From Thermoproteota archaeon (GTDB lineage Archaea; Thermoproteota; Thermoprotei; Gearchaeales; Gearchaeaceae), in assembly GCA_041640715.1 (NCBI GenBank), contig JBEPZU010000003.1, forward strand, positions 12,826-76,825: a stretch of 64,000 nucleotides of DNA, written 5' to 3'. This document shows, piece after piece, positions 15,435 through 35,955 of this stretch. The translations under genes and the position numbers were made by a program. Within the stretch, counting starts at the first letter, position 1. Every line of letters starts with the position of its first letter. The notes beneath the pieces are model-generated. The model had not been told where the DNA came from, did not search any database, and saw only the letters and a list, made by a program, of their open reading frames with translations.

Positions 15435-15464
15435 TCTTTCCCCATTGCATTTCCCTATTATTTA

Positions 15465-16241: not shown

Positions 16242-16316
16242 AAGATTAAATCACTCAGCTAATAGTTAACGATCTCCGCTTTAGAAGTATATAACTACGA
16301 AAGTATTATTGAATTC

Positions 16317-16670: not shown

Positions 16671-16700
16671 AAAAACTGAAAATACTTTAGAATTTCTAAA

Positions 16701-17387
16701 TTATCTAGAATGGCTTAGGATTTCTTTTAGGAATTTGGGTTCAGGTTGGACTCCGAGCAGGGTTGTTTCATCATTTATAACTATAGTAGGAACAGCTTCT
16801 ACGCCATATTTTATAGCCTCTTCTTCTATCTCGCCGACATCTATTATCTCGCTTAATATCTTATCGCTTTCTATTGCAAAACTGTTCGAAGTTCTAGCTG
16901 CCAGCGGGCAATAAGGACAGCTTAGCGTTATGAGAACCTTGATATGCACTGGTTTGTTCAGATTACTCAAAGCTACCTTTGTTGTCTTGGACAGTTTAGT
17001 TTGCCCGTTAGCTAAGTTCTTTATTGTTTCTATGAAAACCGTGAACTCATAACCTCCAGGAATACCTACATATCTTATGTTCCTTTTGTTTTGTTTCTCT
17101 AATACTATTGTAGGGGCATACTTAACATCATATTCCTTAGCCTTTTCTGAATTTACTTTATAATATTCAACTTTGACTTTATCGACGTTTTTAGCTATTA
17201 GGTTCAAAATAACTTTTAGGTCTTCACAATAATGACAAAATCTAGGATCGTCTAAGAATGTAACGAGCTTTACCTCGTCTTGGAGATCTGCTAAATTCTT
17301 AACAACGTATTCCTTTATTTCTTCAAGTTCCTCTTCGCCCAAATGTGCGTGTTCATGTTCATGTGTTCCTTCATGTTCCTCTTCCAT
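16701..17387 (-). CDS. Protein disulfide oxidoreductase (PDO, glutaredoxin-like) with a His-rich N-terminus.
   Basis: 228 aa with two thioredoxin-like units. The active sites are CHYC and CPYC. The N-terminal tail is MEEEHEGTHEHEHAHLGEEE. Confidence 0.75.
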   Translation of the reverse strand: MEEEHEGTHEHEHAHLGEEELEEIKEYVVKNLADLQDEVKLVTFLDDPRFCHYCEDLKVILNLIAKNVDKVKVEYYKVNSEKAKEYDVKYAPTIVLEKQNKRNIRYVGIPGGYEFTVFIETIKNLANGQTKLSKTTKVALSNLNKPVHIKVLITLSCPYCPLAARTSNSFAIESDKILSEIIDVGEIEEEAIKYGVEAVPTIVINDETTLLGVQPEPKFLKEILSHSR

Positions 17388-17452
17388 AGAGAAACTTTAT
17401 TCTTTCAACTATATAAGCTGATAAAATAGAAGGGGTAAGTTTTGAATTGATA

Positions 17453-18421
17453 TCATATTAAAGAAGGTAAGAAGTAAGCTAGAACAAGACCTAGAATTAA
17501 CAATAATCCAAATTGTCTGTTGAGCCAAAATGCTAGAGCAACATACCATACATCCTTCCTGTTCTGTCTATAGAGCTTTATGAAAATATACAAGGAAGTT
17601 ATTGAGAAGAGAACCAAAAGCGTTGTATATGGAAGAATACCTAAGATCGCTAGGAATATTACAGAAAGGTATGCTGATATCGCTATTGCAATCGATACCT
17701 TCTTAGCAATATTTAAACCCAATATTACAGGTAAAGTTTTAACGTTTTTTGCTTTGTCGCTGTCTAGTTTATCTATGTGCTTTCCGAATAATATTAGCAT
17801 GACCATTAGAGCGTAGGGTATTGAAGCTAAAAATATCTTGTGATTTAAGTTGCCTGTTAAAACGAAATATGTGCCGCCAACCATTAAAGGACCCCAAACT
17901 ATGAAGGTAGATATTTCTCCTAACCCGTAATATTTCAATTTAGCCTTTTCTTGATAGAAGTAACCAAATAACACTCCTAAAGCGAAGAACAAGATGACCA
18001 AAGGTCCCCTAATGAAAGTCAAATATATTGCAATCAAAAAGGCTAGTAAGAAATGAATCATTATAATCCTCTTAAGTGTTCCTATGCTATACAAATTATC
18101 CAAGACAGGATGCAACAAATATTTCGCTCTAAAATAATCTTTAGTATCCAATCCTTTTTTGTAATCATAATAATCATTCATTAAATCAGCTCCGCTGTGC
18201 ATCAATAATAATCCTATAAGACAAAGTATGAAGTAAAGAAGATTGAAACTTCCATCCAATAAAGCTAGTAGGCCAGCTATTAAAACTGATATTACCGTGA
18301 TTATGTCTATCACAGCCCTACTAGCTGCCAAATATTTAGACACGGGATCCAGTTCCTCGACTTTATCTGTTATCTTACCTTTCCAAACTATGCTATACCA
18401 TCTTTTGATTATCTTTTGCAT
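17453..18421 (-). CDS. UbiA-family prenyltransferase, MenA-like.
   Basis: 322 aa polytopic. The first Asp-rich motif is NDYYDYKKGLD. It is a paralogue of 31302..32219: YYGLGEISTFIVWGPLM here versus YKGIGELVVFIGWGPLM there. Confidence 0.75.
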   Translation of the reverse strand: MQKIIKRWYSIVWKGKITDKVEELDPVSKYLAASRAVIDIITVISVLIAGLLALLDGSFNLLYFILCLIGLLLMHSGADLMNDYYDYKKGLDTKDYFRAKYLLHPVLDNLYSIGTLKRIIMIHFLLAFLIAIYLTFIRGPLVILFFALGVLFGYFYQEKAKLKYYGLGEISTFIVWGPLMVGGTYFVLTGNLNHKIFLASIPYALMVMLILFGKHIDKLDSDKAKNVKTLPVILGLNIAKKVSIAIAISAYLSVIFLAILGILPYTTLLVLFSITSLYIFIKLYRQNRKDVWYVALAFWLNRQFGLLLILGLVLAYFLPSLI

Positions 18422-18457
18422 TAATTAAATAATAAAGATGAAGGGGATAATAATTAT

Positions 18458-19165
18458 TTGATGAGCGAAGCGCTGTACATGAAAGATAGTTATTTGAGAG
18501 AGTTCGATGGAAAAGTAATAAACGTCGAAGAGAACTATGTCGAGTTAGATAAAACCGCATTTCACCCTACTAGCGGAGGAGTAGCTCATGATGTCGGAAA
18601 GCTTTTCACAAAGGAAAAGGTTTATGTGGTGAATTCAGTGGTTAAGAAGGATTCGAGAATACTCCATTTAGTGAATGAAAAAGGATTAGAGATAGGAGAT
18701 GAAGTCCATGGAGTAATAGATTGGGATAGAAGATATAGGCTTATGAGGATGCATACAGCCGCGCATTTGTTGAGTTCTCTTTTCTTCAATAAACTAGGAG
18801 CCAAGATAACCGGGAATCAAATAGATGTTGATAAATCAAGGATAGATTTTAGTCTTGAGACTTTCGATAGAGCATTGATAGAATCGGTTGTTGAAGAAGC
18901 TAATAGGTTGATAGAGAAAGATGCAAAGGTTAAGGTATATTTCCTTAAAAGAGAAGAGGCCTTGAAAATACCTGGTTTGGTTAAGTTAGCTGAAGCCCAT
19001 CCTCCTGATTTAGAGATATTAAGGATAGTGGAAATAGAAGGAATAGATATACAGGCAGATGGAGGTCCTCATGTAGCTAGTATAAAGGAAATAGGTAAGA
19101 TCATATTGCTCAAAATGGAGAATAAAGGTAAGAATAACAGGAGGATTTACTATACAGTAACTTAG
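18458..19165 (+). CDS. alaX: AlaX-M type alanyl-tRNA editing protein.
   Basis: 235 aa. Zinc-binding HTAAHLL (HxxxH) and C-terminal GGPHVASIKEIGKI match the AlaRS editing-domain family. Confidence 0.85.
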   Translation: MMSEALYMKDSYLREFDGKVINVEENYVELDKTAFHPTSGGVAHDVGKLFTKEKVYVVNSVVKKDSRILHLVNEKGLEIGDEVHGVIDWDRRYRLMRMHTAAHLLSSLFFNKLGAKITGNQIDVDKSRIDFSLETFDRALIESVVEEANRLIEKDAKVKVYFLKREEALKIPGLVKLAEAHPPDLEILRIVEIEGIDIQADGGPHVASIKEIGKIILLKMENKGKNNRRIYYTVT

Positions 19166-19293
19166 ACTACAATCTTTAAGCAGCTTGCAATCTTACTTTT
19201 GTTTTATTGTATTCAAATATGTCTAAAATTATTTTCAATTTCAATTAAAACTAGAAAGATTATTCTTAAAAAACTCTAGTTATCTTAAATAAT

Positions 19294-20727
19294 TCAAATC
19301 AATAATTCTTCATCTATTTCTCTCCAGCTTGCTATATCTCTGAACACAAGAGCACTGGGTCTTAGATATCTTTTCTTAGTTTGATAATCTACGTAAACAA
19401 GCCCGAATCTCGGTTTGAATCCTTGAGCCCATTCATAATTATCTGTCAAAGCCCAGTGTAGATAGCCTCTTACATCGATTCCTTCTTTCATAGCTTTTGT
19501 GGCTTGGAATAGATGAGAGACTAGAAATCTAGGTCTTAGGGAATCTTCTGAATCGGCGATCCCGTTTTCAGTTATTATAATAGGGAGTTTGTATTTATTC
19601 CAGGCCTCTTTTAAAGCCTTGTAAAGTCCTTCAGGATATATTTCCCAACCTAAGTCGCTGCATCTTCTACCGTCTAGAGATAATCCATTAGGTCTGCAAA
19701 AGAAACCATAATTTTCTACGAGCTTGAAGCCTATGCGACCCTCAGCAGGTCTTACCACTATTCGGCTATAATAATTTAAACCTAACCAATCTAGATGACC
19801 TTTCATATCTTCCCTTTCTCCGATCATGAAAGAATTACCTTTTGTTATTAAGTCCAAAAAATCAAGGAGTACAGCATTGGATGTTTCAGCTGCGCTTAAG
19901 TATGGTTCTTCGCTCTTTAGAGGCTCTGCAATATTGAAAACGTATGTGATGCCCACTGGCTTCTTTGATACGGCTTTAATAGCTTCATATGCTCTAGCAT
20001 GTGCTTCTGCTAAATTTTTCGTTGCAATCATGGCTAAATCTAGGCTCAAATAACCTGGAGGAAAGCCTGATTTCACATCTAAATAGCCGGATGTATAAAC
20101 TATATTAGGTTCATTCATCGTACTCCACATATCTGGGATTTCTTCGAATTTCCAAGCAACATAAGCTGTGAACTTAACGAACTCTACTACTGTTCTCTTA
20201 TCCACCCATCCTGCTTTGCCTTTAGAAGTTTTCCTGAAATTCAAAGGTTCATGTATCCAAATAGGAAGTGTGAAGTGATTCAGATTTATTATTAATTTCT
20301 TACCTCTACTCTTCCAGTCTTCGAATATCTCTTTGTAGTGTTCCACTGCCTGCTTATTAGCTATCTTATCCAGCTCTTCCAAAGCTTTCTCCGAGACATC
20401 TACCCTTAAGATATCTCCTTTTTCATTTTCCTCTATGTCAACTTTTACATCAAAAGTCTCCTTGGGAAATACTCTGCTCCATTCGATTCCAAGTCTAGCA
20501 GCATTCATTGAGAGTTTATCCGCTATCTCGTGATCTTTTTTATATAAATCCCAATATGCAGGTCCTGCTTCAGGCAAATCTCCGCTTACTATTCTAGAAA
20601 TAATGTTCTCTTCATCACGGACCCAAGACCACCAATCAGAATTCGGATCTTCAGAGCCTTTCATTCCCATTTCGAACTGAAATCCAGATTCTGAGAATCC
20701 TAATAAGAAATCCTTAGGAATTTTCAC
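19294..20727 (-). CDS. GH1 beta-glycosidase.
   Basis: 477 aa. The acid/base motif is TMNEPN and the nucleophile motif is ITENG. Confidence 0.9.
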   Translation of the reverse strand: MKIPKDFLLGFSESGFQFEMGMKGSEDPNSDWWSWVRDEENIISRIVSGDLPEAGPAYWDLYKKDHEIADKLSMNAARLGIEWSRVFPKETFDVKVDIEENEKGDILRVDVSEKALEELDKIANKQAVEHYKEIFEDWKSRGKKLIINLNHFTLPIWIHEPLNFRKTSKGKAGWVDKRTVVEFVKFTAYVAWKFEEIPDMWSTMNEPNIVYTSGYLDVKSGFPPGYLSLDLAMIATKNLAEAHARAYEAIKAVSKKPVGITYVFNIAEPLKSEEPYLSAAETSNAVLLDFLDLITKGNSFMIGEREDMKGHLDWLGLNYYSRIVVRPAEGRIGFKLVENYGFFCRPNGLSLDGRRCSDLGWEIYPEGLYKALKEAWNKYKLPIIITENGIADSEDSLRPRFLVSHLFQATKAMKEGIDVRGYLHWALTDNYEWAQGFKPRFGLVYVDYQTKKRYLRPSALVFRDIASWREIDEELLI

Positions 20728-20751
20728 ATTATAATATTCATGACTGAGTAT

Positions 20752-22143
20752 TTAAGAAAACGTCAAGCCGGCTCTTTCTTTCAGCTTTTCTCTAAGTTTC
20801 TTCATATCTTTATGGTAAAATCTTAGAAGGGGTAACCAGAGCAACGCGCAGGGTATCCAAAATAATATGGTTACCAACAAACCGTAATACATCGCTTCAG
20901 ATTCACTTAGGTTGAATGAAGAATATATCGCCATGAAAGAAGCTGAGACCAAGGGGGCAAAGGCAGCACCTATGTTGTCTGTTATGCTGAATATTGAATA
21001 CAAAGAGCCTCTGTGCTCAGGTAAACTCACATCACTTAGCACTGTTGGAACGTTTGGACCTGAAAAGGAGGCAAAAACCAAGCCGATAAAAACTATCGTC
21101 AACAGAGGGATCAAGTCCAGGAAATCATTTGAGCCTTTAGGATAAGGGTAGGAAATCATGATCAAAAATATTGCAGTGCCCAACGATATTCCGCTAATAG
21201 GGACGAAAATCCTAGCATTGCGCTTACCTTTAGCTATGAAAAGATCTGAAAAAGCACCTCCTAAGAAATTCCCCAATATCATTCCTATTCCTCCAGCCAA
21301 GAGGACTATCGTAGCTAATTCCCTTTCTATCCCCCATCTGATGTTCATATACGTTATAGACCAATAAGGTATGCTTCCCCAAGGTACTGTTCCCGGTATT
21401 CCTTGAAGAAGTATGAAGAGAATCGTCTTTGTATCCTTTAAACTAGAGACGAATTCTCTTACGTTTATTTTATATCCGTATATTTTCCCTTCATCATATA
21501 GTTTCTTTATCTCAGGCTCTGAATAGCCAACTCTTATTTCCTTAATTAAGAAGAGAAAAAGAGGAACTAAAAGGAAATTCGGCAATGCTGCGATAATGAA
21601 AGATATTCTCCAATCAGGTAAAAGACCAGCCATTACCATCCCTGCGAGCGACCCTCCTCCTGTTGCAGCAGTTATGAATGCAAAGCCTCTACCTCTTTTC
21701 TCAGCAGGATAAATGTCTGCCACTAATGCTTTTGCTATAGGAAAAGATCCGCTCAATCCTATGCCTGTAAATGATCTATAAAATAGAAGTTCCCAATAAC
21801 TTCTGCTAAAGGCTGTTAGAAATGTGGGAATTTCTCCTACCAAAACTGCTATTGCTAGCAATTTCTTCCTACTAATTTTATCTGCGACATAACCCCAAAT
21901 GAAAGCTGTTGATATTCCTGAGACTGTAGTAACTGTACCTAATAGAGCAGCATAGAAGAACCAAGTCCTTTCATCCCCCAATATTAGTCCTTCATTACGC
22001 AAAGTTATAATCAATGGAACCACGAGATTTTGATCAACATAAAGAACAGTTATTATAGAGAACAATAAAAACGCAGCTAGTCTAAATGAATTTCCCATAA
22101 GACTTGTTATATTAAACGCAATTTTATTTAAACAATAGAGCAA
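20752..22143 (-). CDS. MFS transporter, likely a sugar importer co-transcribed with the GH1 gene.
   Basis: 463 aa with ~12 TM segments and an MFS-like two-repeat organisation. It lies immediately upstream of GH1 on the same strand. Confidence 0.75.
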   Translation of the reverse strand: MLYCLNKIAFNITSLMGNSFRLAAFLLFSIITVLYVDQNLVVPLIITLRNEGLILGDERTWFFYAALLGTVTTVSGISTAFIWGYVADKISRKKLLAIAVLVGEIPTFLTAFSRSYWELLFYRSFTGIGLSGSFPIAKALVADIYPAEKRGRGFAFITAATGGGSLAGMVMAGLLPDWRISFIIAALPNFLLVPLFLFLIKEIRVGYSEPEIKKLYDEGKIYGYKINVREFVSSLKDTKTILFILLQGIPGTVPWGSIPYWSITYMNIRWGIERELATIVLLAGGIGMILGNFLGGAFSDLFIAKGKRNARIFVPISGISLGTAIFLIMISYPYPKGSNDFLDLIPLLTIVFIGLVFASFSGPNVPTVLSDVSLPEHRGSLYSIFSITDNIGAAFAPLVSASFMAIYSSFNLSESEAMYYGLLVTILFWIPCALLWLPLLRFYHKDMKKLREKLKERAGLTFS

Positions 22144-22282
22144 AACCAGTTGGATTAGGAAAGATGGTTAGCAATAAAATATGTTAATTTCTTTAGAATT
22201 TCTAATAAAAAGTTTAAGTTATGCTAATTTAAATTAAACTGTTATACAGGATAGATTTAAGTTTCAAAGAGGATTTCTTCTT

Positions 22283-23497
22283 GTGATAGAAGAGATAAGG
22301 GCGAAGCTTAGCAGTTCTCTGCTCAATAGAACGATTATTCATTGTGTGACTTCCAGCTTCGCTATCTATAAAGCAATAGACATAGCAAGGTTCTTGATAA
22401 AGCATGGAGCTAACGTAATACCTGTCTTAAGTGAAAAAGCATCAAAATTGATAAATCCTATCTTGTTTGAATATGCTACTGGAAATAGACCTGTTCATAA
22501 AATAACAGGGAAAGTAGAACACGTTAGTCTATTCAAAGAAAACAAGGTAGACCTCGTATTGATAGCTCCTGCCACTGCAAATACAATAGCCAAGATAGCC
22601 AATGGCATCTCTGATAGCACAGTTACTTTAGTAGCATCTGTTGCGATAGGGCTAGGAATACCTATGCTTATAGTTCCCGCTATGCATGAACCTATGTATG
22701 AAAATCCGCTTATTAAATCAAGTATAGAGAGATTGGAAAAGTTAAGGATTAGCTTCGTAGAACCTAGGATTGAGGAAGGAAAGGCCAAGATAGCTACGGA
22801 AGAAGAGATATTCCTAGCAGTGATGAGATTGCTTCAAGAAAAACCTTTAATAGGTAAGAAGGTCCTCGTAACAGCAGGTTCAACAAGAGAATACATAGAT
22901 TCTGTTAGATTCATAACAAACGCGAGCTCAGGTAAAATGGGCTTAGCTATGGCTAAGGCAGCTTGGTATCTAGGCGCAGATGTTCTCTTTGTCCATGGAG
23001 ACGTGAAGATCGAAATACCTAGATTCATGAAATCAATCCATGTAGAGGACTCTGAAGAAATGCTCTCGGTCATTTCAGATATATTAGCTAAGAACAGAAT
23101 AGATTATTTTGTAGCATCAGCAGCTGTTGTGGATTTCAAACCAATTGCCAAAGTTGAAGGTAAAATAGATAGTAAGATAGAGAAACTTCAGTTAGAACTG
23201 ATACCTACTAAGAAAATAATAAAAGAAGTAAAGAAGATTTCTAAGGAAACAGTCCTCATAGCTTTCAAAGCTGAGTACGGGATGAATAAAAATCTCGAAG
23301 AATTGATAAAGGATTATGAATTTTGCGATTATATCGTGGTCAACGATATATCTAGAAAAGACATAGGATTTGGTAGTGATTTCAATGAGGTAATGTTTGT
23401 GGATGTTTCTAAAAGAAAGGTCAAAGAAATAAGTAAAACATCTAAAGATACGCTCGCTGGGCTCATATGGAAAGAAATACTATATGAAAGAACATAA
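22283..23497 (+). CDS. coaBC: Bifunctional phosphopantothenoylcysteine decarboxylase / phosphopantothenate-cysteine ligase.
   Basis: 404 aa. The N-terminal half is a flavoprotein and the C-terminal half is CoaB, with VLVTAGSTREYIDSVRFITNASSGKMG. Confidence 0.9.
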   Translation: MIEEIRAKLSSSLLNRTIIHCVTSSFAIYKAIDIARFLIKHGANVIPVLSEKASKLINPILFEYATGNRPVHKITGKVEHVSLFKENKVDLVLIAPATANTIAKIANGISDSTVTLVASVAIGLGIPMLIVPAMHEPMYENPLIKSSIERLEKLRISFVEPRIEEGKAKIATEEEIFLAVMRLLQEKPLIGKKVLVTAGSTREYIDSVRFITNASSGKMGLAMAKAAWYLGADVLFVHGDVKIEIPRFMKSIHVEDSEEMLSVISDILAKNRIDYFVASAAVVDFKPIAKVEGKIDSKIEKLQLELIPTKKIIKEVKKISKETVLIAFKAEYGMNKNLEELIKDYEFCDYIVVNDISRKDIGFGSDFNEVMFVDVSKRKVKEISKTSKDTLAGLIWKEILYERT

Positions 23498-24077
23498 ATC
23501 TGAAGAACTGTTGGAAAGACTAGCGCCCTTCTATGAAAGTTTATGGGCTCCTTTGGGAATGCTCATAACTGCTAGGAGGACTTACAGCTCTATAATGCAA
23601 GAAGCCGCTGATTTCTTGGATTGTGAAAGAATCTTAGACGTAGGAGCTGGGACTGGAAAGCTTCATGATTTCTTGCATTGTGAAGATTACGTAGCCTTAG
23701 ATATTTCCGAGAGATTTCTCAAAATTTTGAATAGAAAAAGGAAGAAGTCCTCTGCTATAAGGGCTACTGCTTTAAGATTGCCTTTTAGAAGAGAATCTTT
23801 TGAAGGAGTAGCAATGCTCTTCGTCCTTCACATGATAGAAGATAAGGATGAAGCTTTGAAGGAAATCAATCGCGTTCTTAAGAAAGGGGGTAAATTCATA
23901 TGTTCTGTTTTAACTCTCAATAGCAGAATTAGCATTTTACTATCTAAATGGTGGTCTATAGACCTTTTAACTAAAAAGGAATACGTGAATTTATTTTCAA
24001 GAAACGGCTTTAATGTTTATTCTCATAACGAGATAGGAGCATGGACAATTTTCAAATGTGTTAAAGATATTATTTAG
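23484..24077 (+). CDS. Class I SAM-dependent methyltransferase.
   Basis: 197 aa. ILDVGAGTGKL is motif I and VLKKGGKFI is the motif post-I/II pattern. Confidence 0.75.
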   Translation: MKEHKSEELLERLAPFYESLWAPLGMLITARRTYSSIMQEAADFLDCERILDVGAGTGKLHDFLHCEDYVALDISERFLKILNRKRKKSSAIRATALRLPFRRESFEGVAMLFVLHMIEDKDEALKEINRVLKKGGKFICSVLTLNSRISILLSKWWSIDLLTKKEYVNLFSRNGFNVYSHNEIGAWTIFKCVKDII

Positions 24078-24095
24078 CTCGTTTATTTTTGAATA

Positions 24096-24743
24096 GTGCG
24101 TATACTTAAGTTTACTAGCGAGCCTTTACATTCTTGGATTAGAGAGTTATTTAGGAAGCATAAGGAAACTTTAGAGGAGTTTTGTCTGTTTAATTGTAAA
24201 TTTTTACCCGAAAAAGAACTTGTGCAAATGCATTTTATTTTGGAAGCAAAGGGCGGAATAAAAGAAATATCGGAAACAATAAACAATTCAGAAGATGTTG
24301 TTCATTACGAACCTTTTGTAATCCGTCCTAATTTGCTAATAGGTTCTGTGTTGGTATCAAGATGCACACTCTGTGCTACTTTAGCTAAATCAGAATGTTC
24401 CTTCAGAAAAATGGTGAATAGAAAGGATGGAGTTTTAGAATGGGAATTAATAGGTTCGCCTAAACAAGTCTCAAGTTTATTGAAAGAAATCGAAGAGAAA
24501 GCAATCAAGATAGACATCAAATATATTGGAAGTATTGGAGGTAAGAAATCCAACCTTACCGAAAATCAAGAGAAGCTCCTCAAAATGGCTTATGAGCTAG
24601 GATATTTCGATTATCCTAGAAGGATTTCTTTAGAGGAGTTAGCTGATAAATTAAATCTAAATCCTTCTACATTAAGTGAAAAAATGAGGAGGGCGATTAG
24701 AAACTTGATTAAAGATCATATAGAAAAAAAGGATTTCGAATAA
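24096..24743 (+). CDS. HTH_10 (Bat-type) archaeal transcription regulator.
   Basis: 215 aa. The C-terminal LTENQEKLLKMAYELGYFDYPRRISLEELADKLNLNPSTLSEKMRRAIRNLI is a textbook HTH_10 domain. It is convergent with oxidase operon 2. Confidence 0.6.
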   Translation: MRILKFTSEPLHSWIRELFRKHKETLEEFCLFNCKFLPEKELVQMHFILEAKGGIKEISETINNSEDVVHYEPFVIRPNLLIGSVLVSRCTLCATLAKSECSFRKMVNRKDGVLEWELIGSPKQVSSLLKEIEEKAIKIDIKYIGSIGGKKSNLTENQEKLLKMAYELGYFDYPRRISLEELADKLNLNPSTLSEKMRRAIRNLIKDHIEKKDFE

Positions 24744-24747
24744 GGTT

Positions 24748-26400
24748 TTAGTAGAATATGGGCATTCCCGCTAATCTTGCAAAAGAGTAGAAGTAAAGCA
24801 ATAGCAGTATTAATCCGACTATTATACAGAGCGCTAAACTACCTGTTTTACTAGCCTTTGAGGTTTTTATCTCAAAACTCGTCATTAATCCTTCAAAGAC
24901 ATTTTCTTTCTGAGGTTTTGATAAAAAGATTGTGGCTACTATGTTGAAAACAAAGAGTATTCCTCCTATTATTGCGATCAGAGCTCCTACTATTATTAAA
25001 GGAGATACCCAAGTCCATTGAGGTAAGGTCATTTCAGGATAGAAGAAAGTCCTTCGCGGACTCCCATTAAATCCAGCTACAGACATGGTTGTCGCTAATA
25101 TGAGTATACCGAAGAAAAATACGTAAGGCTGTATCTTTGCTATTTTTACACTGTAGATTTTCTTCGAAGTTAAGGCAGGTATAGCATAATAGAACAATAC
25201 CATGAAGGCCATGGTTGTTGCACCTGCCACTAGTGTATGGAAGTGTCCAGGAACCCATAAAGTATTATGGTAATTTACGTTTGGCTGTAAAGTAGTTTGC
25301 GGTTGAGCAATAATTCCTCCAAAGCCTATAAGGATTAGGCTAAGAACAGTTGTGGATATCGCAGGATTGCTCCAAGGAATTTTTCTTATCCATCCAAATA
25401 GGCTGGTATGGCCTGAAGCTCTTATTACGCTCTCTATAGCTCCTGCTAGTGCTAGCCCGTGTAGTAATGTAGGTACTGATAGGAAATGAGAACCTACACT
25501 TCCACTTGCCTGCTTGAGCGCATAGGACCATCCTGGATCTACTAAAATATGATGACCTATACCAGGTACTACAAATATAGGATATAAGACAAATGCTATT
25601 CTTGCATATCTTTCATTAATGAATCTTATCGCTGCAAGACCTGTTCCTAGAACTACTAGAGCGTATAATACAGCTATCGTAGCTGATATATTAAGGTATT
25701 GTGCATCATGACCCAATCCCCAGAAATACCATCTGTACACCATTACATTCATAGGCATCAATCCTACTCTCCATAGAAGTGTGTAGAGCATTGATATTGC
25801 ACCTTGAATCACTACTGTCAAAGCTATGATCGCAGCTATGCCAGCACCCCATGTCACTAAAGGCAAAGAACCTGTATATGCTCCTTTAATTTTTGCATTG
25901 TAAATCGTCAAGAAGAATATTATTACAGCTATTCCTGCACCTAAAGCAAATAGCAAGTATCCTACATAAAAGAGAGGATGTGCAGCCAATGGAGGATATG
26001 CAGTAAATAATACGCTTGCGTTGCCTGAAGCTACTAGTATTTCTATCATTATTTGACCTATGAGCATAAAGGCAAATGCCATCCAAGCCAAACGAATTGA
26101 GTAGAGTTCTGAGTTCAACAAAACGGCCCCTGCGAAATACACTATAGTGATTTCAGCCCATATTATCCAGAATATCAGCATGTTAATTCCGTGTAACGTT
26201 AACCAAATATAGTAATTCTCGTGGGTTATCCCTAGTACATTTATCAAAGAAGAGACCGTAGATCTCCCTCCAGCTACGAATAAAGCAGCTATTCCTCCTA
26301 TGATTATTGATAGTAATGCCATTACTAAGTTAGCTGTTATTAGTAGTCTAGTCTTATCGTATATCTTAAGATCTGCCAAAGGAGATATTCTATAGCTCAT
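24748..26400 (-). CDS. Haem-copper oxidase subunit I, second copy.
   Basis: ~550 aa with VPGHFHTLVAG and other His ligands. The listed ORF extends to 26448, but the probable start is MSYRISPL at 26400, giving an ATGA overlap with the subunit II stop. Confidence 0.9.
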   Translation of the reverse strand: MSYRISPLADLKIYDKTRLLITANLVMALLSIIIGGIAALFVAGGRSTVSSLINVLGITHENYYIWLTLHGINMLIFWIIWAEITIVYFAGAVLLNSELYSIRLAWMAFAFMLIGQIMIEILVASGNASVLFTAYPPLAAHPLFYVGYLLFALGAGIAVIIFFLTIYNAKIKGAYTGSLPLVTWGAGIAAIIALTVVIQGAISMLYTLLWRVGLMPMNVMVYRWYFWGLGHDAQYLNISATIAVLYALVVLGTGLAAIRFINERYARIAFVLYPIFVVPGIGHHILVDPGWSYALKQASGSVGSHFLSVPTLLHGLALAGAIESVIRASGHTSLFGWIRKIPWSNPAISTTVLSLILIGFGGIIAQPQTTLQPNVNYHNTLWVPGHFHTLVAGATTMAFMVLFYYAIPALTSKKIYSVKIAKIQPYVFFFGILILATTMSVAGFNGSPRRTFFYPEMTLPQWTWVSPLIIVGALIAIIGGILFVFNIVATIFLSKPQKENVFEGLMTSFEIKTSKASKTGSLALCIIVGLILLLLYFYSFARLAGMPIFY

Positions 26401-26915
26401 GGTATCACCTCTATGATACCTCTCATTCCACCATGACCGTAGCCGCAATATTCATTGCAAATAATGTAGTAGGTACCTTCCTTGTCAAATCTTATATTAA
26501 ATTTAAAAGCCATTCCTGGCATGACCATGATATTATAAACTGCGTCTTCTCCTACCAATGAGAAACCGTGCATCACATCTGTGCTAGAAACCCAAATTTC
26601 ATATTCAACTCCTTTCTTCAGGATTATCTTAGAGGGTTCCCAATAGTATTGTTTGCCCGCTAGGTATATTGGTGTTCCTGGAGGAACAGGCTTGTCTGCA
26701 AATTCCTCCATAAAAGCTTGAACAAGCTTCTCATATTCCTCATGTTCTATAGCAATTGCTGTAGCTGGTACTGCATGTTTAGCATCTGCCAAAGGCCAAA
26801 GCAGAGTAGTTAGAGCTAGTATTATTCCGATGATGAATGAAAGTGCTATCCATAGCCTTTCCTCTTTGGTGAAAGGTTTATACCACTCCTCTATTTTCTT
26901 AGGTATTACCACCAT
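26397..26915 (-). CDS. Haem-copper oxidase subunit II (CuA), second copy.
   Basis: CuA motif H...CNEYCGYGHGGM. The true start is probably MVVIPKKIEEW at 26915. The 37-codon upstream extension in the listed ORF looks non-coding in this frame. Confidence 0.85.
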   Translation of the reverse strand: MVVIPKKIEEWYKPFTKEERLWIALSFIIGIILALTTLLWPLADAKHAVPATAIAIEHEEYEKLVQAFMEEFADKPVPPGTPIYLAGKQYYWEPSKIILKKGVEYEIWVSSTDVMHGFSLVGEDAVYNIMVMPGMAFKFNIRFDKEGTYYIICNEYCGYGHGGMRGIIEVIP

Positions 26916-26917
26916 GT

Positions 26918-27064
26918 TTATGGTGGAATAGGACCTACGGGCATACCATGCATAGAGACAACTTCGATTAACGCCCATACACCGTAGGCGAACATTATAC
27001 CAATTGCAATAGCGCCCCAGAACCATAAGTTGTCCAATAACGTTGAAGATACTTTGCTTGCCAT
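26918..27064 (-). CDS. Unlisted 48-aa single-TM small protein, subunit IIa-like, second copy.
   Basis: ATG at 27064..27062 gives MASKVSSTLLDNLWFWGAIAIGIMFAYGVWALIEVVSMHGMPVGPIPP. TAA falls 2 nt before the subunit II ATG. The region is locally GC-richer, and the arrangement matches 2858..3007. Confidence 0.5.
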   Translation of the reverse strand: MASKVSSTLLDNLWFWGAIAIGIMFAYGVWALIEVVSMHGMPVGPIPP

Positions 27065-27151
27065 ATGATTTCTATAAATTTTGGATATAGAAAAAAATAA
27101 TCCCGAATATATTTGGTATTTATTTATATACTAAAATATGAAAATATATAA

Positions 27152-28216
27152 TTAAATACTATTATTTTTCAAAATTTTATAAGATAATATGCTTAGCCTA
27201 CCAGCAAGCTTCCTGGTCACTTCGAAATAAGCTTTAGCTGCTTCACTTTCAGGTTCTGCTATCAATATAGGAATTCCTTCATCTGATAGTTTTCTTAGAG
27301 ATGGGTCTAAAGGAATGCTTCCTAGATAAGGAACGTTCAATTTATCAGCCAATTCTCTTCCTCCTCCTGAACCGAATACGTCTATTCTGTTCTTGCAATG
27401 AGGGCATATTAGATAGCTCATATTCTCAACTATGCCTAGTATATTATTATTCAGTTTTTTGAACATGGTCAAAGCCTTCATAGCTATAGAATAGGCCGCA
27501 GGCTGAGGCGTTGTTACCACTAATATGCTAGCATTAGGTAATAGTTGGGCCAAAGTCAAAGGTACATCACCTGTTCCTGGAGGTAAATCCACGATCAAAT
27601 AATCTAACTCACCCCAATCTACATCTGTAATCAATTGTCTGAGAGCTCCAGAAACTATGGGGCCTCTCCATATTAAAGGGGTATCTTCAGTTATGAAGAA
27701 CCCAATAGAAATCACCTTAACGCCATATGATATAGGCGGTAAAAGCTTTTTCCCATCCGTTCTAACAGGATCCTTTATGCCTAACATCCTAGGTACACTA
27801 GGGCCGTATATATCGCCATCTAATAGACCGACTTTGGCTCCGCTTATAGCTAATGCTACTGCTATGTTGCATGCTACAGTGGTCTTGCCAACACCTCCTT
27901 TACCGCTTGCTATAGCTATGATGTTCTTAACATTAGGTAGTATGTCTTCAGGCAATATCCTCCTCGATGGGAGTACTTTGGCTGAGGTCTTAACTTCTAC
28001 TTCCTTAACCCCCTTTATCTTCTTTAACTCATAGATTATGCTATCTTCGATTTCTTTTTTCAAAGGACATGCAGGAGTTGTAAGCTCGCACTCTACGATC
28101 ACTTTTCCGCCATCTATCTCAACCTTCTTGATCATCCCCATTTTAACGATGCTAACTCCAAGCTCAGGGTCTTTTATTCTGTCTAAGATATCCAATATCT
28201 CCTTTTCTTTAATCAT
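27152..28216 (-). CDS. Mrp/NBP35/ApbC-family Fe-S cluster carrier ATPase with an N-terminal DUF59 domain.
   Basis: 354 aa. The Walker A motif is AIASGKGGVGKTTVACNIA. An N-terminal MIP18/DUF59-like domain and a CPHC cluster-binding motif are present. Confidence 0.85.
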   Translation of the reverse strand: MIKEKEILDILDRIKDPELGVSIVKMGMIKKVEIDGGKVIVECELTTPACPLKKEIEDSIIYELKKIKGVKEVEVKTSAKVLPSRRILPEDILPNVKNIIAIASGKGGVGKTTVACNIAVALAISGAKVGLLDGDIYGPSVPRMLGIKDPVRTDGKKLLPPISYGVKVISIGFFITEDTPLIWRGPIVSGALRQLITDVDWGELDYLIVDLPPGTGDVPLTLAQLLPNASILVVTTPQPAAYSIAMKALTMFKKLNNNILGIVENMSYLICPHCKNRIDVFGSGGGRELADKLNVPYLGSIPLDPSLRKLSDEGIPILIAEPESEAAKAYFEVTRKLAGRLSILSYKILKNNSI

Positions 28217-28266
28217 TCAAAACGTAAGTAAAATACCATTTATTTAAGCATGAGAATCTTAATTTT

Positions 28267-29121
28267 ATGGATATACTTGCTATTTTATTTTTAACGCTAT
28301 TCCTATCTTCCCTAATCTTATCTATGAAGATCAATTACAATTTAGAAAAAGCCTTGACTTCAATAGTGATCCTTTTAATACTCACCATCTCTTCATGGGC
28401 TTCAGCTAGTCTAAAAGGAAGCACTTACATATTTTCAGTGTTTTTCATCGCTTTCGCTTATGGTTTCTTCGTAGTCTTATTCAGCTATCTAATAGGCTTA
28501 GTTTTAGGAGGTTACAAAGATAACTCTAAACTGGTCAATAGCAAACCTAACTTGAGCTTCATATTAGCGATAGCCATTGGCTGGGTTGTGGGATATTTCT
28601 TACCAGAACATCTGCCTTTCAAAGAAGCGATATTCTATGAGCTTCTCATCCTAGCAGTTTTTGCTGGTCTTGCAACTGGCAGGTATTTTTCAACGTATTT
28701 GCTCAAGAAGAATATCAGGACTTTAATTCTTAGCATAACTAGCGCTTTTATAGGAGGTTTCATCGCTGGTTATGTATTAGCTCTCGTGTTCAACATGGAC
28801 ATAAAGACTTCTATGGCTATTTCCTTGGGAATGGGCTGGTATACTTATGCAGGACCTTTGATAGCTAGCTATGAAGGGGTCTTGATAGGAAATATAGCCT
28901 TTTTAGCTAATTTCATAAGGGAACAGTTAACTTTCATCCTCGTACCATTTCTTAGAGGCAATCCGCATTCTTTGCTCTGTATTGGTGGTGCTACTACCAT
29001 GGATGATACACTCCCAATTTACATAGCGAAGCTAGGTAAAGAATATTCGATATTAGCTATTTCCAACGGCTTCCTTTTGACTTTGTTAGTACCTATTGTC
29101 TTACCTTTAATTTTGATTTAA
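28267..29121 (+). CDS. Polytopic membrane protein, possibly LysO/DUF340-type (lysine exporter-like).
   Basis: 284 aa with ~8 TM segments. GGATTMDDTLP resembles the DUF340 GGA-T/S-MDTTLP signature. Family assignment is tentative. Confidence 0.45.
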   Translation: MDILAILFLTLFLSSLILSMKINYNLEKALTSIVILLILTISSWASASLKGSTYIFSVFFIAFAYGFFVVLFSYLIGLVLGGYKDNSKLVNSKPNLSFILAIAIGWVVGYFLPEHLPFKEAIFYELLILAVFAGLATGRYFSTYLLKKNIRTLILSITSAFIGGFIAGYVLALVFNMDIKTSMAISLGMGWYTYAGPLIASYEGVLIGNIAFLANFIREQLTFILVPFLRGNPHSLLCIGGATTMDDTLPIYIAKLGKEYSILAISNGFLLTLLVPIVLPLILI

Positions 29122-29662
29122 AAGACCATAACACCTTCAAGATACAAAGTTAAAGAGAATCTCTCAAGGCCTGAGAACAATAATAAATAAGCTTGTAACA
29201 TGGCTGAGATCTTCTTGTGTGCGCCAAAAACCGAATTACACGAGAAGGTATAGTGCGATGTTGATTTGAAGCATTAGTTAAGTTGTTCAAAATCACGTTT
29301 AGAACGATGCTTCCAATCCGAAAAATGAATGCTATAATGCTGAATTTCCTAATCCTAATATCTAGCTTCATCAAGAGAAAAAAGAGCTAGCGTACCGAAG
29401 ATAGTAATATGAGGTTCAAGACTAGAATAAATTCTTTGGTAAAGATCGATTCGGTTTTTAATGTGATCATCCACACATCGAGGTTGGCAATAAAAGATGT
29501 CATTAAAACATAGAGAGCTAAGGTATTGTTCGAAGTCTCAGATATCCTTACTTAGAAAAAAACTCTGATTGGTGTTGTTATTAAAGAGTAAGCCACAAAC
29601 CGTGGTCAAAATAAACAAAACCATAACTTTAAATGTTATTTTAGAATCTATATTAACACGAT

Positions 29663-30700
29663 ATGAAAGCGGCTTTCATAAGGAGACATGGAGGCCCTGA
29701 AGTAATAGAATACGGAGAATTAGAAGATCCTGTCCCCAAGCCTGGTGAAGTACTCGTGAAGATATTGTTCTCTTCTATTAACAGGATAGATACTCTGGTT
29801 AGACAAGGTTATCCTGGGATAAAAATAGAAATGCCCCATATACTAGGCGTAGATGCGATAGGATATGTTGAGAAAGTAGGCGAAAATGTAGGTAATATAA
29901 ACAAAGGAGACATGGTCATGGTTTATCCCATTGTTAGTTGCGGTGTTTGCGAAAATTGTTTGAAAGGAATGGAGAATAGATGCACGCAGTGGAAGATGAT
30001 AGGATTTCAATATAGAGGGGCTAATGCAGAATATATAAATGTTCCTTCAAGGAACATCATAAAACTCGAAGATGGTTCAAATCCAGAGAAATATGGCGTC
30101 CTCCCGCTAGTACTTTTAACTAGTTGGAGATCTCTTGTTACATTAGGAAGCATAAATAAAGATACTACCATCTTCCTTTGGGGAGGCAGCTCTGGTGTAG
30201 GTACGATATCTATTCAAATAGCTAAGTATTTCGGCGCAAAGGTGATAACAGCTACAAGCTCAGATTGGAAAGCTGAAAAACTCAAGGCTTTAGGTGCAGA
30301 TTTGGTTCTCAATTATTTAAGAGATGACATACTGAGTAAAGTCAGAGAATTCACCGATGGATATGGAGTAGATTTAGTCATAGATCCTGTAGGTTCTGAG
30401 CTTTCTAGATCTCTCGACTTAGACTTGGCTAAAGTTGGAGGTAGGATAATATTTTACGGAGTTTGGAAAATGGATTCTTTTCCTATAAATTGGAGGAGGA
30501 TTTATTTGAAGCATTTATCGATAATAGGTTTTCATACAGGGGGGAAATGGGAACTAATGGAAGCCCTTAAGTTAGTTAAGAAAGGCATAATACAACCTGT
30601 GATTTACAAAACCCTTGATTTAGAAGAAGTTGCTAATGCCCATCGAATTCTTGAAAGCGGCGAAGTATTCGGTAAGATAGCCATAAAGATTTCTAGATGA
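29663..30700 (+). CDS. Zinc-binding alcohol dehydrogenase family (MDR) oxidoreductase.
   Basis: 345 aa. The structural-zinc Cys cluster is VSCGVCENCLKGMENRC. The NAD(P)-binding motif is GGSSGVGTISIQIA. Confidence 0.85.
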   Translation: MKAAFIRRHGGPEVIEYGELEDPVPKPGEVLVKILFSSINRIDTLVRQGYPGIKIEMPHILGVDAIGYVEKVGENVGNINKGDMVMVYPIVSCGVCENCLKGMENRCTQWKMIGFQYRGANAEYINVPSRNIIKLEDGSNPEKYGVLPLVLLTSWRSLVTLGSINKDTTIFLWGGSSGVGTISIQIAKYFGAKVITATSSDWKAEKLKALGADLVLNYLRDDILSKVREFTDGYGVDLVIDPVGSELSRSLDLDLAKVGGRIIFYGVWKMDSFPINWRRIYLKHLSIIGFHTGGKWELMEALKLVKKGIIQPVIYKTLDLEEVANAHRILESGEVFGKIAIKISR

Positions 30701-31305
30701 TCAAGATTCCTTCATTAGCTCTTCTTTTAGCTCCTTTAATAGCCTGGCCTTTAGTCTTCGTAGTATTAAGCGAGATATTCGTTTTCGCAATGCTTTTTGC
30801 TACGATAATTTTAGGAACGACATCTTATTTTCTATTCAAAGATGAAATTCGCAAGACTTTCGTAAGAAGCAATAAACTCACTGTTATTCTAGTAGGTTTC
30901 ATCGCTTCTTTACTACTTTACGGTATATTCTATTTAGGCGGATATCTAAGCAATTACCTAGGACTTGGCAACTTAGTTTCAAGTGTCTATGATATTTTGC
31001 TTGGAATTGATAGGATAGCCTTAGCTTTCTCTCTGATAGTAATAGGATTCATGGAAGAAGTATATTGGAGAGGTTTTCTTCAAGGGGTTTTCTTGGTAAA
31101 TAAAAGCTTTCCTTGGTTAATATCTTCGATATACTATTCGCTAGTTCACTTAGTGACTTTCAACGTGATCTTGGTCATCGCTGCTTTAATAGTGGGGTTG
31201 ATAACTGGTTATATAGCATATAGATTTGGAGTAGCGTCCTCAATAATAACCCATGTAGTTTGGCTTCAATTAATTATAGTAATATTTCCTATATTATTAT
31301 CATGA
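30697..31305 (+). CDS. CPBP-family (CAAX protease/Abi) intramembrane metalloprotease.
   Basis: 202 aa polytopic. EEVYWRGFL is the EExxxR motif and SLVHL is the FxxxH motif. It overlaps neighbours by ATGA on both sides. Confidence 0.7.
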   Translation: MIKIPSLALLLAPLIAWPLVFVVLSEIFVFAMLFATIILGTTSYFLFKDEIRKTFVRSNKLTVILVGFIASLLLYGIFYLGGYLSNYLGLGNLVSSVYDILLGIDRIALAFSLIVIGFMEEVYWRGFLQGVFLVNKSFPWLISSIYYSLVHLVTFNVILVIAALIVGLITGYIAYRFGVASSIITHVVWLQLIIVIFPILLS

Positions 31306-32219
31306 GTTACGTTAAAAGAACGAATTTAAGAATACTGATCGACGCTATTAAAATAAGTAGACCTTGGAGTTTCCTTATGACTATAACTTCGGTTTCTTTA
31401 AGTACTGCATATGTTTATTATGAAAAGGGCATTTTCGACTTATTGATATACTTATTAGTATTGCTAGGTGCAGTTTTAATCCATGCTTTCATTAATGTAT
31501 CCAACGATTATTTTGATACTTTATATAAAATAGATATACCTGGAGCTCCGACTACGAGATATAGGCCGCATCCAATAGTAGCTGGTTTATTCACTCCAAG
31601 ACAAACATTCGCAATATCTTTGGGGTATATAACTTTAGCGCTAATTCTAGCTTTAATCTTTTTGTTTTTCCTAGAAAGGCCTTGGATAATTTTAATAGCC
31701 GCCATAGGGGCGTTGATATCCTTTGAATACACAGCTCCCCCGCTTAGATATAAGTATAAAGGTATTGGGGAGTTGGTCGTCTTCATAGGATGGGGACCTT
31801 TGATGTTTATAGGCGCTTACTATGCCCAAACAGGCATAATTCCTTCAACCTCAATTCTCGTATCAATTCCGATAGGTCTTTACGTAGCATCTGTTCTCTT
31901 AATAGATGGAATAAGGGATTATGAATACGATAAAAGCTCCAACATAAAAACCTTGCCTATATTGCTAGGTAGAAATACAGCGCTAAAGCTTTATTTCTCA
32001 ATAACCACCATTCCTTTTGTAGCGGTAGTTTTACTCATCTTATTCAACTTACTTCCCATCACTAGCTTGATAGTATTCCTAAGCCTTCCTAGGCTGATCA
32101 ATTTGATGAGGATCTTTTCAAAGGAAGTTCCAGACATAGCTGCACCTCTTACTGCCCAATTCACCTTATTCTACGGTATTCTTTTAATTGCAGGAATAAT
32201 CTTAGGGGCGTTAATTTAA
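31302..32219 (+). CDS. UbiA-family prenyltransferase, MenA-like, second paralogue.
   Basis: Asp-rich motifs are NVSNDYFDTLYKID and DGIRDYEYD. The start is reassigned to MSYVKRT at 31302, giving an ATGA overlap with the CPBP stop. Confidence 0.75.
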   Translation: MSYVKRTNLRILIDAIKISRPWSFLMTITSVSLSTAYVYYEKGIFDLLIYLLVLLGAVLIHAFINVSNDYFDTLYKIDIPGAPTTRYRPHPIVAGLFTPRQTFAISLGYITLALILALIFLFFLERPWIILIAAIGALISFEYTAPPLRYKYKGIGELVVFIGWGPLMFIGAYYAQTGIIPSTSILVSIPIGLYVASVLLIDGIRDYEYDKSSNIKTLPILLGRNTALKLYFSITTIPFVAVVLLILFNLLPITSLIVFLSLPRLINLMRIFSKEVPDIAAPLTAQFTLFYGILLIAGIILGALI

Positions 32220-32241
32220 TTTTTTTGAATAAATCATACCC

Positions 32242-32766
32242 ATGAAAGAATCTAAAATTAGACCCGTATATGCTGAAGCCTTTTTCAAAGTATCGAAAGA
32301 TGACATCTCCTATTATTTAATTTTTGATTATTTAGACGAAGAAAGATATTACGAGAAACTCTTCAGAAAAGAAGAGGAATTGGATAAAGAAATGAATAAA
32401 TTATACTATAACATGCAGAATTTTCTAGACGAAGAAAAGGTGATTGTAAACGGTGAAAGATGCAGACCTAGGGTAAGAATGGTCGATTTAAATTTCAGAA
32501 ATGGTTATGATAGGGTTAGCATTGTTTTCTTGATAAGCTTTCCTGTAAAACTCAAAAAGAGGGGTAATTATTATGAAAACGAATATGCTTCAGAGGTTGT
32601 AGAATACAATTATAAAGTTTATTGGTTTTTCCCAGAAGGCAGCGAGATAATCGAAGTCGATATGGAGGAAGACTATGAAATTCTAGATAAGAGAATTTTG
32701 GTAATATATGGTAAAAAGGGCAATAAGAGCTCTGGATATGAAATGATCTCCTTCAATCTTAAATAA
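32242..32766 (+). CDS. Hypothetical soluble protein.
   Basis: 174 aa, charged and Tyr-rich, with no recognisable motif. Confidence 0.35.
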   Translation: MKESKIRPVYAEAFFKVSKDDISYYLIFDYLDEERYYEKLFRKEEELDKEMNKLYYNMQNFLDEEKVIVNGERCRPRVRMVDLNFRNGYDRVSIVFLISFPVKLKKRGNYYENEYASEVVEYNYKVYWFFPEGSEIIEVDMEEDYEILDKRILVIYGKKGNKSSGYEMISFNLK

Positions 32767-32787
32767 AATTTCCTGATAAGTAATACA

Positions 32788-34311: not shown

Positions 34312-34315
34312 ATAT

Positions 34316-35799: not shown

Positions 35800-35955
35800 G
35801 TAGATATCTTTTTGCTTAATATAAGTTTTCAATAGTTTAATTGTAATAATTCTGGGATTTACTAACAATTACTTTTATTACTATCTTCCAAGAACAAAAC
35901 TTATGTATATCCTTTGCTTGTTACCACTGCAGAGACGTTATCGCGTGAAGTTGGA

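Follow-up and report, generated by a model that had tools for sequence, protein, structure and literature searches.

A conserved micro-protein gene and an operator-like palindrome in a second B-family oxidase operon of a Thermoproteota archaeon

Results and discussion

Gene order of the operon

The DNA analysed is a stretch of 64,000 nucleotides (nt) from a Thermoproteota archaeon (assembly GCA_041640715.1, contig JBEPZU010000003.1, positions 12,826 to 76,825 of the forward strand), referred to as the window. It has a G+C content of 35.9% and carries two terminal oxidase operons. This study deals with the second of them, operon 2 (minus strand, 27064..24748), with the open reading frame (ORF) of 48 amino acids (aa) at its head and with the gene of an HTH_10-family regulator that converges on it. 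The order of the genes is 48-aa ORF, subunit II, subunit I. The 48-aa ORF (26918..27064, minus strand; MASKVSSTLLDNLWFWGAIAIGIMFAYGVWALIEVVSMHGMPVGPIPP) codes for a micro-protein with a single transmembrane (TM) helix. Its stop codon TAA is followed by 2 nt (AC) and then by the ATG of subunit II at 26915. Subunit II (26397..26915, minus strand; 172 aa) matched the Pfam model COX2 with E = 7.7e-7 and consists of one N-terminal hydrophobic TM helix and a CuA cupredoxin domain (H..C.E.C..H..M). The CuA site is complete (H, C, C, H, M), with DVMHGF and CNEYCGYGHGGM. The stop codon of subunit II overlaps the start codon of subunit I in the sequence ATGA, and a Shine-Dalgarno-like site of subunit I, GAGGTGA, lies at 26405..26411. 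Subunit I (24748..26400, minus strand; 550 aa) matched COX1 with E = 1.1e-55 and has the full ligand set of an O2 reductase.

Operon 1 is located on the plus strand. It starts with a small ORF of 49 aa (2858..3007), whose TAA abuts the ATG of subunit II at 3008. Subunit II (3008..3457), which carries CNEYCGSGHQTM, and subunit I (3459..5072) both have Pfam matches. With 337 bits and E = 1e-99 towards the Thermus ba3 enzyme, this subunit I belongs to a canonical ba3-like B-family oxidase. The degenerate pattern CNEYCG was found at two sites only in the window, in operons 1 and 2, with 0 expected by chance. An initial annotation of this DNA had described the order small ORF, subunit II, subunit I for both operons, the coordinates, 2-nt junction and ATGA overlap of operon 2 and a convergent HTH_10 gene beside it; all of this was correct on re-reading of the sequence.

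An alternative subunit II ORF of 209 aa (26397..27026, minus strand; ATG at 27026) spans the small ORF in another frame. This reading was ruled out by the orthologous loci (numbered from L001 onwards), since stop codons lie a few codons 5' of the conserved ATG of subunit II in relatives, e.g. L001, L003 and L008. In L002 (3375..4004) the gene caller took the long form of subunit II, which masks the small ORF.

Conservation of the 48-aa ORF

Besides the window, the archaeal sample comprised eight encoding contigs and 14 genome loci. The sources were Thermoproteota, Desulfurococcales, Acidilobaceae and Aeropyrum metagenome-assembled genomes (MAGs) and single-cell genomes. The archaeal orthologues of the operon 2 subunit I are 53-67% identical to it. 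Just upstream of subunit II, the small ORF was intact in all 23 archaeal orthologous loci. The distance between its stop codon and the start of subunit II is 0, 1, 2 or about 10-13 nt, and hence the frame relative to subunit II varies among the relatives, which shows separate cistrons and not a frameshifted subunit II. Across nine small-ORF sequences 12 residues are invariant. In the core of 31 codons, synonymous sites are saturated (proportion of synonymous differences, pS, 0.55-1.0) versus a proportion of nonsynonymous differences (pN) of 0.11-0.38, and the G+C content of this core spans 35 to 56% among the loci.

Of 89 sources searched with a profile after two iterations, 87 gave exactly one match, each time on the strand of the oxidase and directly before subunit II. 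In the other two, the contig leaves less than 220 nt of sequence ahead of subunit I; thus, the ORF was found in 87/87 loci with enough upstream DNA. These are the archaeal orthologous loci together with 64 non-archaeal loci. Absence or disruption of the ORF in relatives, which the initial annotation had named as the outcome that would speak against it, was looked for in this way and was found neither in the archaeal nor in the wider set. These data show that the 48-aa ORF is a true gene and that purifying selection acts on it.

The family has the signature D..(15)..YxxWxxxE. Residues D11, Y27, W30 and E34 are at least 90% conserved and identical in the archaeal and bacterial sets. Because Y27, W30 and E34 are spaced i, i+3, i+7, they lie on one face of the helix. 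Positions W14, W16, M38-H39 and P45 are specific for the archaeal set. Lysine and arginine amount to about 1.7 per 10 residues before the helix versus 0.4-0.8 in the C-terminal tail. This enrichment suggests a topology with the N-terminus in the cytoplasm and the C-terminus outside. The CuA motif is present in all 87 paired subunit II proteins, and a second TM helix in none of them.

In a word search with the 48-aa ORF alone, only the query itself was recovered. With an alignment as query, the database-wide word search yielded 26 clusters, all unnamed or 'hypothetical', and a full scan with a hidden Markov model (HMM) yielded 19 representative clusters. Pfam and NCBIfam scans of the archaeal and bacterial micro-proteins gave nothing meaningful, and PDB sequence searches with both small ORFs and the family profile gave no match. 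Nothing was found for the peptide motif in a literature search, in which older bioenergetics papers were thinly covered. A tblastn search with an intermediate family member against plasmids, aimed at the haloarchaeal cbaD on pNMAG01, was also negative.

The archaeal profile weakly matches small ORFs at the same position in most of the bacterial loci recovered with the subunit I query. In the bacterial loci L024-L088 this ORF lies about 500-800 nt upstream of the subunit I match. Its consensus is HPlQrLMDNPWLLLxLGxxxPxxSYTxWGWIELxxxPxAxLP, for which there is no Pfam or NCBIfam model. In an intermediate subgroup (L089 709-891, L090 562-744; P0153-P0158) NHY replaces the archaeal MH, and the micro-ORFs of L089 and L090 are also located directly upstream of a COX2-like gene. 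The 48-aa family is old, and it is always found immediately upstream of subunit II, both in the nitric-oxide reductases of the eNOR type (eNORs) and in their archaeal relatives with a tyrosine-type subunit I, which are described below.

Palindrome and HTH_10 regulator

Promoter elements were assigned by the usual archaeal geometry. A TATA-like A/T-rich box, TTTTTTTCTATAT, was read from the sequence at 27085..27097 (minus strand; -33..-21), and in the relatives a similar box, TTTTTAT, precedes the ATG by about 25 nt. From this box we infer a leaderless or near-leaderless transcript starting at the small ORF. Alignment of the 90 nt upstream of the small ORF revealed an operator-like imperfect palindrome, ATACCAAATATATTCGGGAT, at 27100..27119 (minus strand; -55..-36 from the ATG of the small ORF), with the core CCAAATATATTCGG at 27103..27116. 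It would abut the B recognition element (BRE) position of the TATA-like box, and it falls within the promoter region that the initial annotation had named for binding of the HTH_10 protein. Its position is conserved across loci with saturated synonymous sites. The 8-mer TTCGGGAT alone showed no enrichment in the window.

Three types of palindrome were distinguished. Group A has the form CC-N9-(C/A)GG in an A/T-rich context and is present in the window and in L001, L002, L003/L011, L008, L009, L010 and L022, with the 3' edge at -35..-39 from the start codon in all of them. In L005/L012 a group A palindrome is located further upstream, and the start codon there is ambiguous. A second match in L022 lies inside a coding region and was taken as chance. 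Group B, GAACATGTTC, occurs once per locus and always in this upstream spacer (L004, L006, L013, L015, L018, L019). Group C has the form TTGGAC-N2-3-GTCCAA and was found in L014, L016 and L017, with a variant in L007/L020.

The HTH_10 gene (24096..24743, plus strand; 215 aa) is convergent with operon 2, and the stop codons are 4 nt apart. The protein matched PF04967 with E = 7e-20; the domain is C-terminal and scores 71 bits against a Pfam cut-off of 23.1. The N-terminal part contains CxxC-x7-C (C90, C93, C101) and has no Pfam match. With a local HMM of the HTH_10 domain, one gene was detected in the 64-kb window and one in the flanks of 14 of 20 distinct archaeal loci; none was detected near eNOR loci or loci of the operon 1 type. 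The gene is convergent and downstream in the window and L002, downstream with one gene between in L003/L011, and further downstream on the same strand in L009. It is divergent and upstream in L004, L013, L018 and L019, upstream on the same strand in L006, L007 and L015, and directly after subunit I on the same strand in L014, L016 and L017. A non-random association of the HTH_10 gene with loci of the operon 2 type is supported by this distribution.

Furthermore, the type of palindrome and the type of HTH_10 recognition helix change together across the loci. The proteins of group A are longer, have a CxxC motif and carry the recognition helix S(T/S)xSE..RRA; in group B this helix is KSxLSY.LRR and in group C (K/R)TGTM.MVRR. 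The single-cell genome Crenarchaeota archaeon SCGC AAA471-B05 has two paralogous operons (L011 and L016), each with its own palindrome and the matching HTH_10 type. Two paralogous operons (L018 and L019) are also present in the MAG PSS.bin.19, and in both genomes each of these operons comes with a small ORF and an HTH_10 gene of its own. L009 has another group A palindrome, ACCTAATATTTTAGGGAT, at 2811-2829, 35-53 nt upstream of a co-directional string of genes (2864-6903) coding for a DUF2249-cupin protein, a DUF59 protein, a membrane protein of 389 aa, the HTH_10 protein and a membrane protein of 371 aa. This palindrome suggests a small regulon that includes the regulator gene. The data fit a dedicated, partly autoregulated HTH_10 transcription factor, for which binding to the palindromes is predicted.

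Several points weigh against this assignment. Pattern CCWWWNNWWTTMGG has its one occurrence in the 64-kb window at 27100..27119 and about 1 is expected by chance; as this is chance level, the weight lies on the conserved position only. The transcript start given above is drawn from the sequence. The single-sequence AlphaFold model of the HTH_10 protein, with a mean predicted local distance difference test score (pLDDT) of 50, was too poor for recognition of a sensor fold. The window HTH_10 gene has no palindrome of its own in front of it and is the last gene of a string at 22283..24743 (plus strand), in which it follows coaBC (DFP/flavoprotein) and the gene of a UbiE-like methyltransferase, with overlaps or gaps of 18 nt between neighbours; it appears to be co-transcribed with coaBC and the methyltransferase gene. 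Finally, in six of the 20 archaeal loci a palindrome is present, but no HTH_10 gene was detected within 3-5 kb.

These six loci, and the placement of the window gene in another transcription unit without the motif, would be expected if the HTH_10 gene were a bystander and the palindromes were bound by another transcription factor encoded elsewhere. However, adjacency in 14 of 20 loci, in four gene arrangements, is unlikely to arise at a frequency of about one HTH_10 gene per 64 kb. The parallel between palindrome classes and recognition-helix classes and the L009 palindrome in front of an HTH_10-containing gene string also argue against a bystander. Hence we consider it rather unlikely that another factor binds the palindromes, and among the alternatives discussed here this one keeps the most weight.

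The candidate regulator resembles the haloarchaeal HTH_10 proteins Bat, DmsR and NarO in its C-terminal HTH_10 domain, in a putative N-terminal sensor part with cysteines and in its location beside respiratory genes. NarO and DmsR control anaerobic respiration, and NarO has an N-terminal cysteine motif. In contrast, the N-terminal region of the window protein has another length and no Pfam match, the host belongs to the Thermoproteota and the target would be an aerobic oxidase. In the literature searched, with older bioenergetics thinly covered, no published HTH_10 regulator of a crenarchaeal oxidase was found, nor was a published regulator for the choice between two crenarchaeal terminal oxidases.

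Relation to subunit IIa

The 48-aa ORF shares with subunit IIa of the ba3 oxidase of Thermus thermophilus (CbaD, CoxIIa, PF08113; 1EHK/1XME chain C) and of Aquifex aeolicus the single TM helix and the location directly upstream of a one-helix subunit II. In ba3 structures, IIa reportedly runs antiparallel to helix I of an A-type subunit II, and the predicted orientation with the N-terminus inside and the C-terminus outside agrees with this. For the comparison of sequences, the Thermus IIa reference was checked against 1XME_C. The operon 1 small ORF aligned with it without gaps over 30 aa with 27% identity (pairwise E = 1e-4). Conserved counterparts of it precede subunit II in 11 relatives and have the motif xKG(T/A)..Y..W..VY..SRGG, of which xKG(T/A) (PKAT in the window) matches the published signature PX1-3G(T/A) plus Trp. 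Thus, the operon 1 small ORF is a genuine IIa homologue.

The initial annotation had assumed that both operons keep a IIa-like micro-subunit and had proposed an alignment of the two small ORFs. No alignment of the operon 2 ORF with the operon 1 ORF was obtained by BLASTP at E <= 100, and the comparison of the two family profiles by hhalign gave a probability of 0.12%. Bit scores between the two families with crossed HMMs were about 0-6. The model PF08113 scores Thermus IIa at E = 4e-21 and matched neither the 48-aa ORF nor the operon 1 ORF at E <= 10. Neither the 48-aa ORF nor any of its 86 relatives has the PX1-3G(T/A) motif. Therefore, the operons share the architecture but use two families without detectable relationship, and only the operon 1 ORF resembles Thermus IIa. 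The assumption that the micro-subunit is real and not a chance ORF stands as far as a conserved gene is concerned, but a IIa type in both operons was not confirmed. Judged by its sequence, the 48-aa ORF does not code for a classical subunit IIa but belongs to an uncatalogued family that also occurs with bacterial eNORs.

It could be argued that the small protein is a true but extremely diverged IIa homologue (CoxIIa/CbaD), so that the same ancestral micro-subunit would be present in both operons. Gene position, size class, single TM helix, predicted orientation and the one-helix subunit II partner are the same. In the work of Prunetti et al. (PMC3128077), upstream ORFs with very little similarity were aligned as IIa, including that of Magnetospirillum, whose cytochrome a1-like enzyme was assigned to eNOR in PMC11214002. 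The Magnetospirillum sequence in the table of PMC3128077 is without the conserved Gly. Against common descent stand the negative profile, BLASTP and PF08113 comparisons, the lack of the published motif and different conserved residues, D..YxxWxxxE instead of KG(T/A)..W..VY..RG. The micro-protein goes with eNOR and its archaeal sister clade and not with the ba3-like B1 group. We regard homology with IIa as unlikely.

The ba3 operons cbaDBAC(+cbaE) of haloarchaea (Natronomonas pharaonis) also code for an archaeal B-type oxidase with a small cbaD before subunit II and with extra small subunits (PMC3403918; PMC3128077). By the published description, with which the comparison was made, CbaD was aligned with IIa via a ProXaaGlyThr and Trp motif (PMC3128077) that is absent in the 48-aa ORF. 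According to PMC3128077, citing Hemp and Gennis, IIa is present in only one archaeal family.

Role of the micro-protein

It is already published that a separate IIa helix accompanies a one-helix subunit II and that a small upstream ORF may provide the second helix (PMC3128077). The one-helix subunit II in 87/87 loci matches this rule and points to a subunit-like role of the micro-protein, which is probably a third, single-helix subunit of the oxidase. Some findings are at odds with this assignment. Since no homology of the micro-protein to IIa was detected, a shared role is argued from position and topology only. The purified ba3 enzyme of A. pernix was reported to have two subunits only, I and II (cited in PMC3128077), and no small subunit was reported for the eNOR of R. 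marinus (PMC11214002). Peptides of this size are easily missed in purification (PMC3128077).

Preparations of related enzymes that list two subunits only (PMC3128077; PMC11214002 section 6) would also be in line with a factor needed for the assembly or maturation of subunit II or I, acting in membrane insertion or in copper or heme delivery, instead of a stoichiometric subunit. A Met-His pair right outside the membrane is invariant in the archaeal members and often has a further Met behind it, which resembles Cu(I)-binding motifs. The bacterial members are without Met-His, however, whereas the conserved stripe of Y27, W30 and E34 sits inside the helix. A stoichiometric partner is in better agreement with the constant presence of one micro-ORF per subunit II, translationally coupled to it, in 87/87 loci and with the known pairing of one-helix subunit II proteins with a separate helix (PMC3128077). 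An assembly factor is thus a quite improbable explanation.

Type of the enzyme

The ligands H70, H231, Y235, H283, H284, H386 and H388 of the operon 2 subunit I are invariant in an alignment of 15 orthologues. The window protein has GHDAQY and every archaeal orthologue GHxAQY. Including the distant L023, the context is GHxAQY(V/L/I)N with Tyr, and all six His ligands are present. Towards Thermus ba3 the operon 2 subunit I scored 167 bits (E = 5e-48), and a PDB search gave matches to Thermus ba3 and 7DEG only; the PDB contains no structure from this enzyme lineage. The identity with the operon 1 subunit I is 32%. About 40% identity (36-44%, about 360 bits) was found with many bacterial proteins, which have GHxSQQ(I/V)N with Gln at the position of the cross-linked Tyr. 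With the state assigned by alignment column, Gln was present in 61/61 fully recovered subunit I proteins from the 64 non-archaeal loci. In the literature, eNOR is diagnosed by a Gln where the active-site Tyr would be (PMC8756737 section 2.7.1; PMC11214002), and the R. marinus eNOR reduces NO and not O2 (PMC11214002).

The 21 Tyr-type archaeal sequences formed one clade in a neighbour-joining tree and the 61 Gln-type sequences another, and the two were jointly monophyletic versus the ba3-like group. The tree is rough and has no support values, which makes the sister relationship to eNOR provisional. The operon 2 enzyme has the six His, HxxxY and the CuA site of B-family O2 reductases and does not have the Gln of eNOR. 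With Tyr and the His ligands kept and with the clades of this tree, the operon 2 enzyme appears to form, together with its archaeal relatives, a clade of O2 reductases that is sister to the sampled eNORs. The description in the initial annotation as a diverged copy of the B-type oxidase holds for a second, diverged B-family enzyme in the broad sense. It is, however, not simply a ba3-like paralogue, with 32% identity to the first copy and a grouping with eNOR. Provisionally, the micro-protein would be older than the split of the Tyr-type archaeal enzymes from eNOR.

The eNOR operons of Rhodothermus marinus and Magnetospirillum (Murali et al. 2024, PMC11214002) represent the nearest subunit I outside the archaeal clade and share the one-helix CuA subunit II. 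The same micro-ORF family was found at the same position in 64/64 non-archaeal loci with upstream sequence. Differences are the Gln of eNOR versus the cross-linked Tyr of the archaeal enzyme and the additional W14, W16, M38-H39 and P45 of the archaeal micro-proteins. The eNOR literature consulted for comparison describes two subunits and does not mention the small protein.

All of the closest non-archaeal relatives are Gln-type eNORs, and the micro-protein family and the context GHxxQ.(I/V/L)N are common to both groups, so a nitric-oxide reductase like eNOR has to be considered for operon 2. In all archaeal members, however, the diagnostic Tyr, at position +4 relative to the CuB histidine, is invariant, the published criterion for eNOR is Gln at that site (PMC8756737), and the three CuB histidines and the CuA site are intact. 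NO reduction instead of O2 reduction is very improbable here. A chance ORF or a subunit II fragment caused by a frameshift or sequencing error, for which the overlapping 209-aa ORF at 26397..27026 and the long gene call in the syntenic L002 could be quoted, is already contradicted by the comparative data (conservation despite saturated synonymous sites, intact ORF in 87/87 loci, variable spacing and frame, stops 5' of the subunit II ATG in relatives) and has practically no probability left.

Neighbouring genes

Directly upstream of operon 2 and on the same strand, a NUBPL/Mrp-type Fe-S P-loop ATPase is encoded at 27152..28216 (minus strand), and beyond it a LysO-type exporter at 28267..29121 (plus strand). 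L002 has the same upstream neighbours, which shows that the window and L002 are syntenic; its HTH_10 orthologue has 45% identity. The convergent genes of L002 overlap by 4 nt and their transcripts could overlap in antisense. The HTH_10 gene there ends a string of genes for UbiA (probable heme O synthase), a thioredoxin-like protein, MsrA and a methyltransferase. Genes for thioredoxin-like proteins, which may be CuA assembly factors of the Sco/TlpA type, and for UbiA-family proteins, which may be heme O synthases, adjoin several orthologous operons (L001 5713-6384, L008 3254-4941 and L002 7567-9287); neither was found beside operon 2 of the window. A membrane protein of about 365 aa without Pfam match adjoins HTH_10 in L003 (5658-6749), where it directly follows subunit I, and in L009 (5788-6903). 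The two are 54% identical, and no homologue was found in the window. The two L009 membrane proteins had been suspected to be NnrS-like, but Pfam did not bear this out. No tRNA genes and no Rfam matches at gathering thresholds were detected in the whole window (1..64000).

Proposed model and significance

As a whole, the data are best explained by a three-cistron operon with a structural micro-subunit and control by the palindrome and HTH_10, and we consider this explanation probable. Operon 2 would be transcribed as a leaderless or near-leaderless mRNA from the TATA-like box. The palindrome at -55..-36 would serve as operator for a transcription factor that acts as a dimer, with the Cys-containing HTH_10 protein encoded beside operon 2 as the most likely candidate, and such control would give this isoform a regulation separate from the ba3-like operon 1. 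By tight translational coupling the 48-aa protein would be made in step with subunit II. It may use the stripe Y27, W30, E34 to pack against subunit I and the single helix of subunit II and would fill the structural role of subunit IIa in Thermus ba3, without detectable homology.

A wider proposal can be put forward only tentatively. The D..YxxWxxxE micro-protein could represent a second, independent solution to the 'missing helix' of CuA subunits with one helix and could be an unrecognised third subunit of all eNORs and their archaeal O2-reducing sisters that is older than the change from O2 to NO chemistry. In that case, the HTH_10 protein and the palindrome that co-varies with it may be, with regard to the literature searched, the first dedicated regulator of a terminal oxidase isoform proposed in Thermoproteota.

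Descriptions of B-family oxidases and eNORs usually give two subunits, and very small subunits are routinely overlooked in annotation and purification. The micro-ORF in 87/87 loci predicts a third polypeptide in eNOR, an enzyme that is relevant to N2O emission and is without a solved structure. The micro-protein is a concrete component to be included in structural and expression studies. Furthermore, the Tyr-type archaeal clade and the Gln-type eNORs, which have the same micro-protein, form a natural pair for comparison of the transition between O2 and NO reduction. The palindrome and its HTH_10 partner would offer a testable handle on the crenarchaeal choice between two terminal oxidases.

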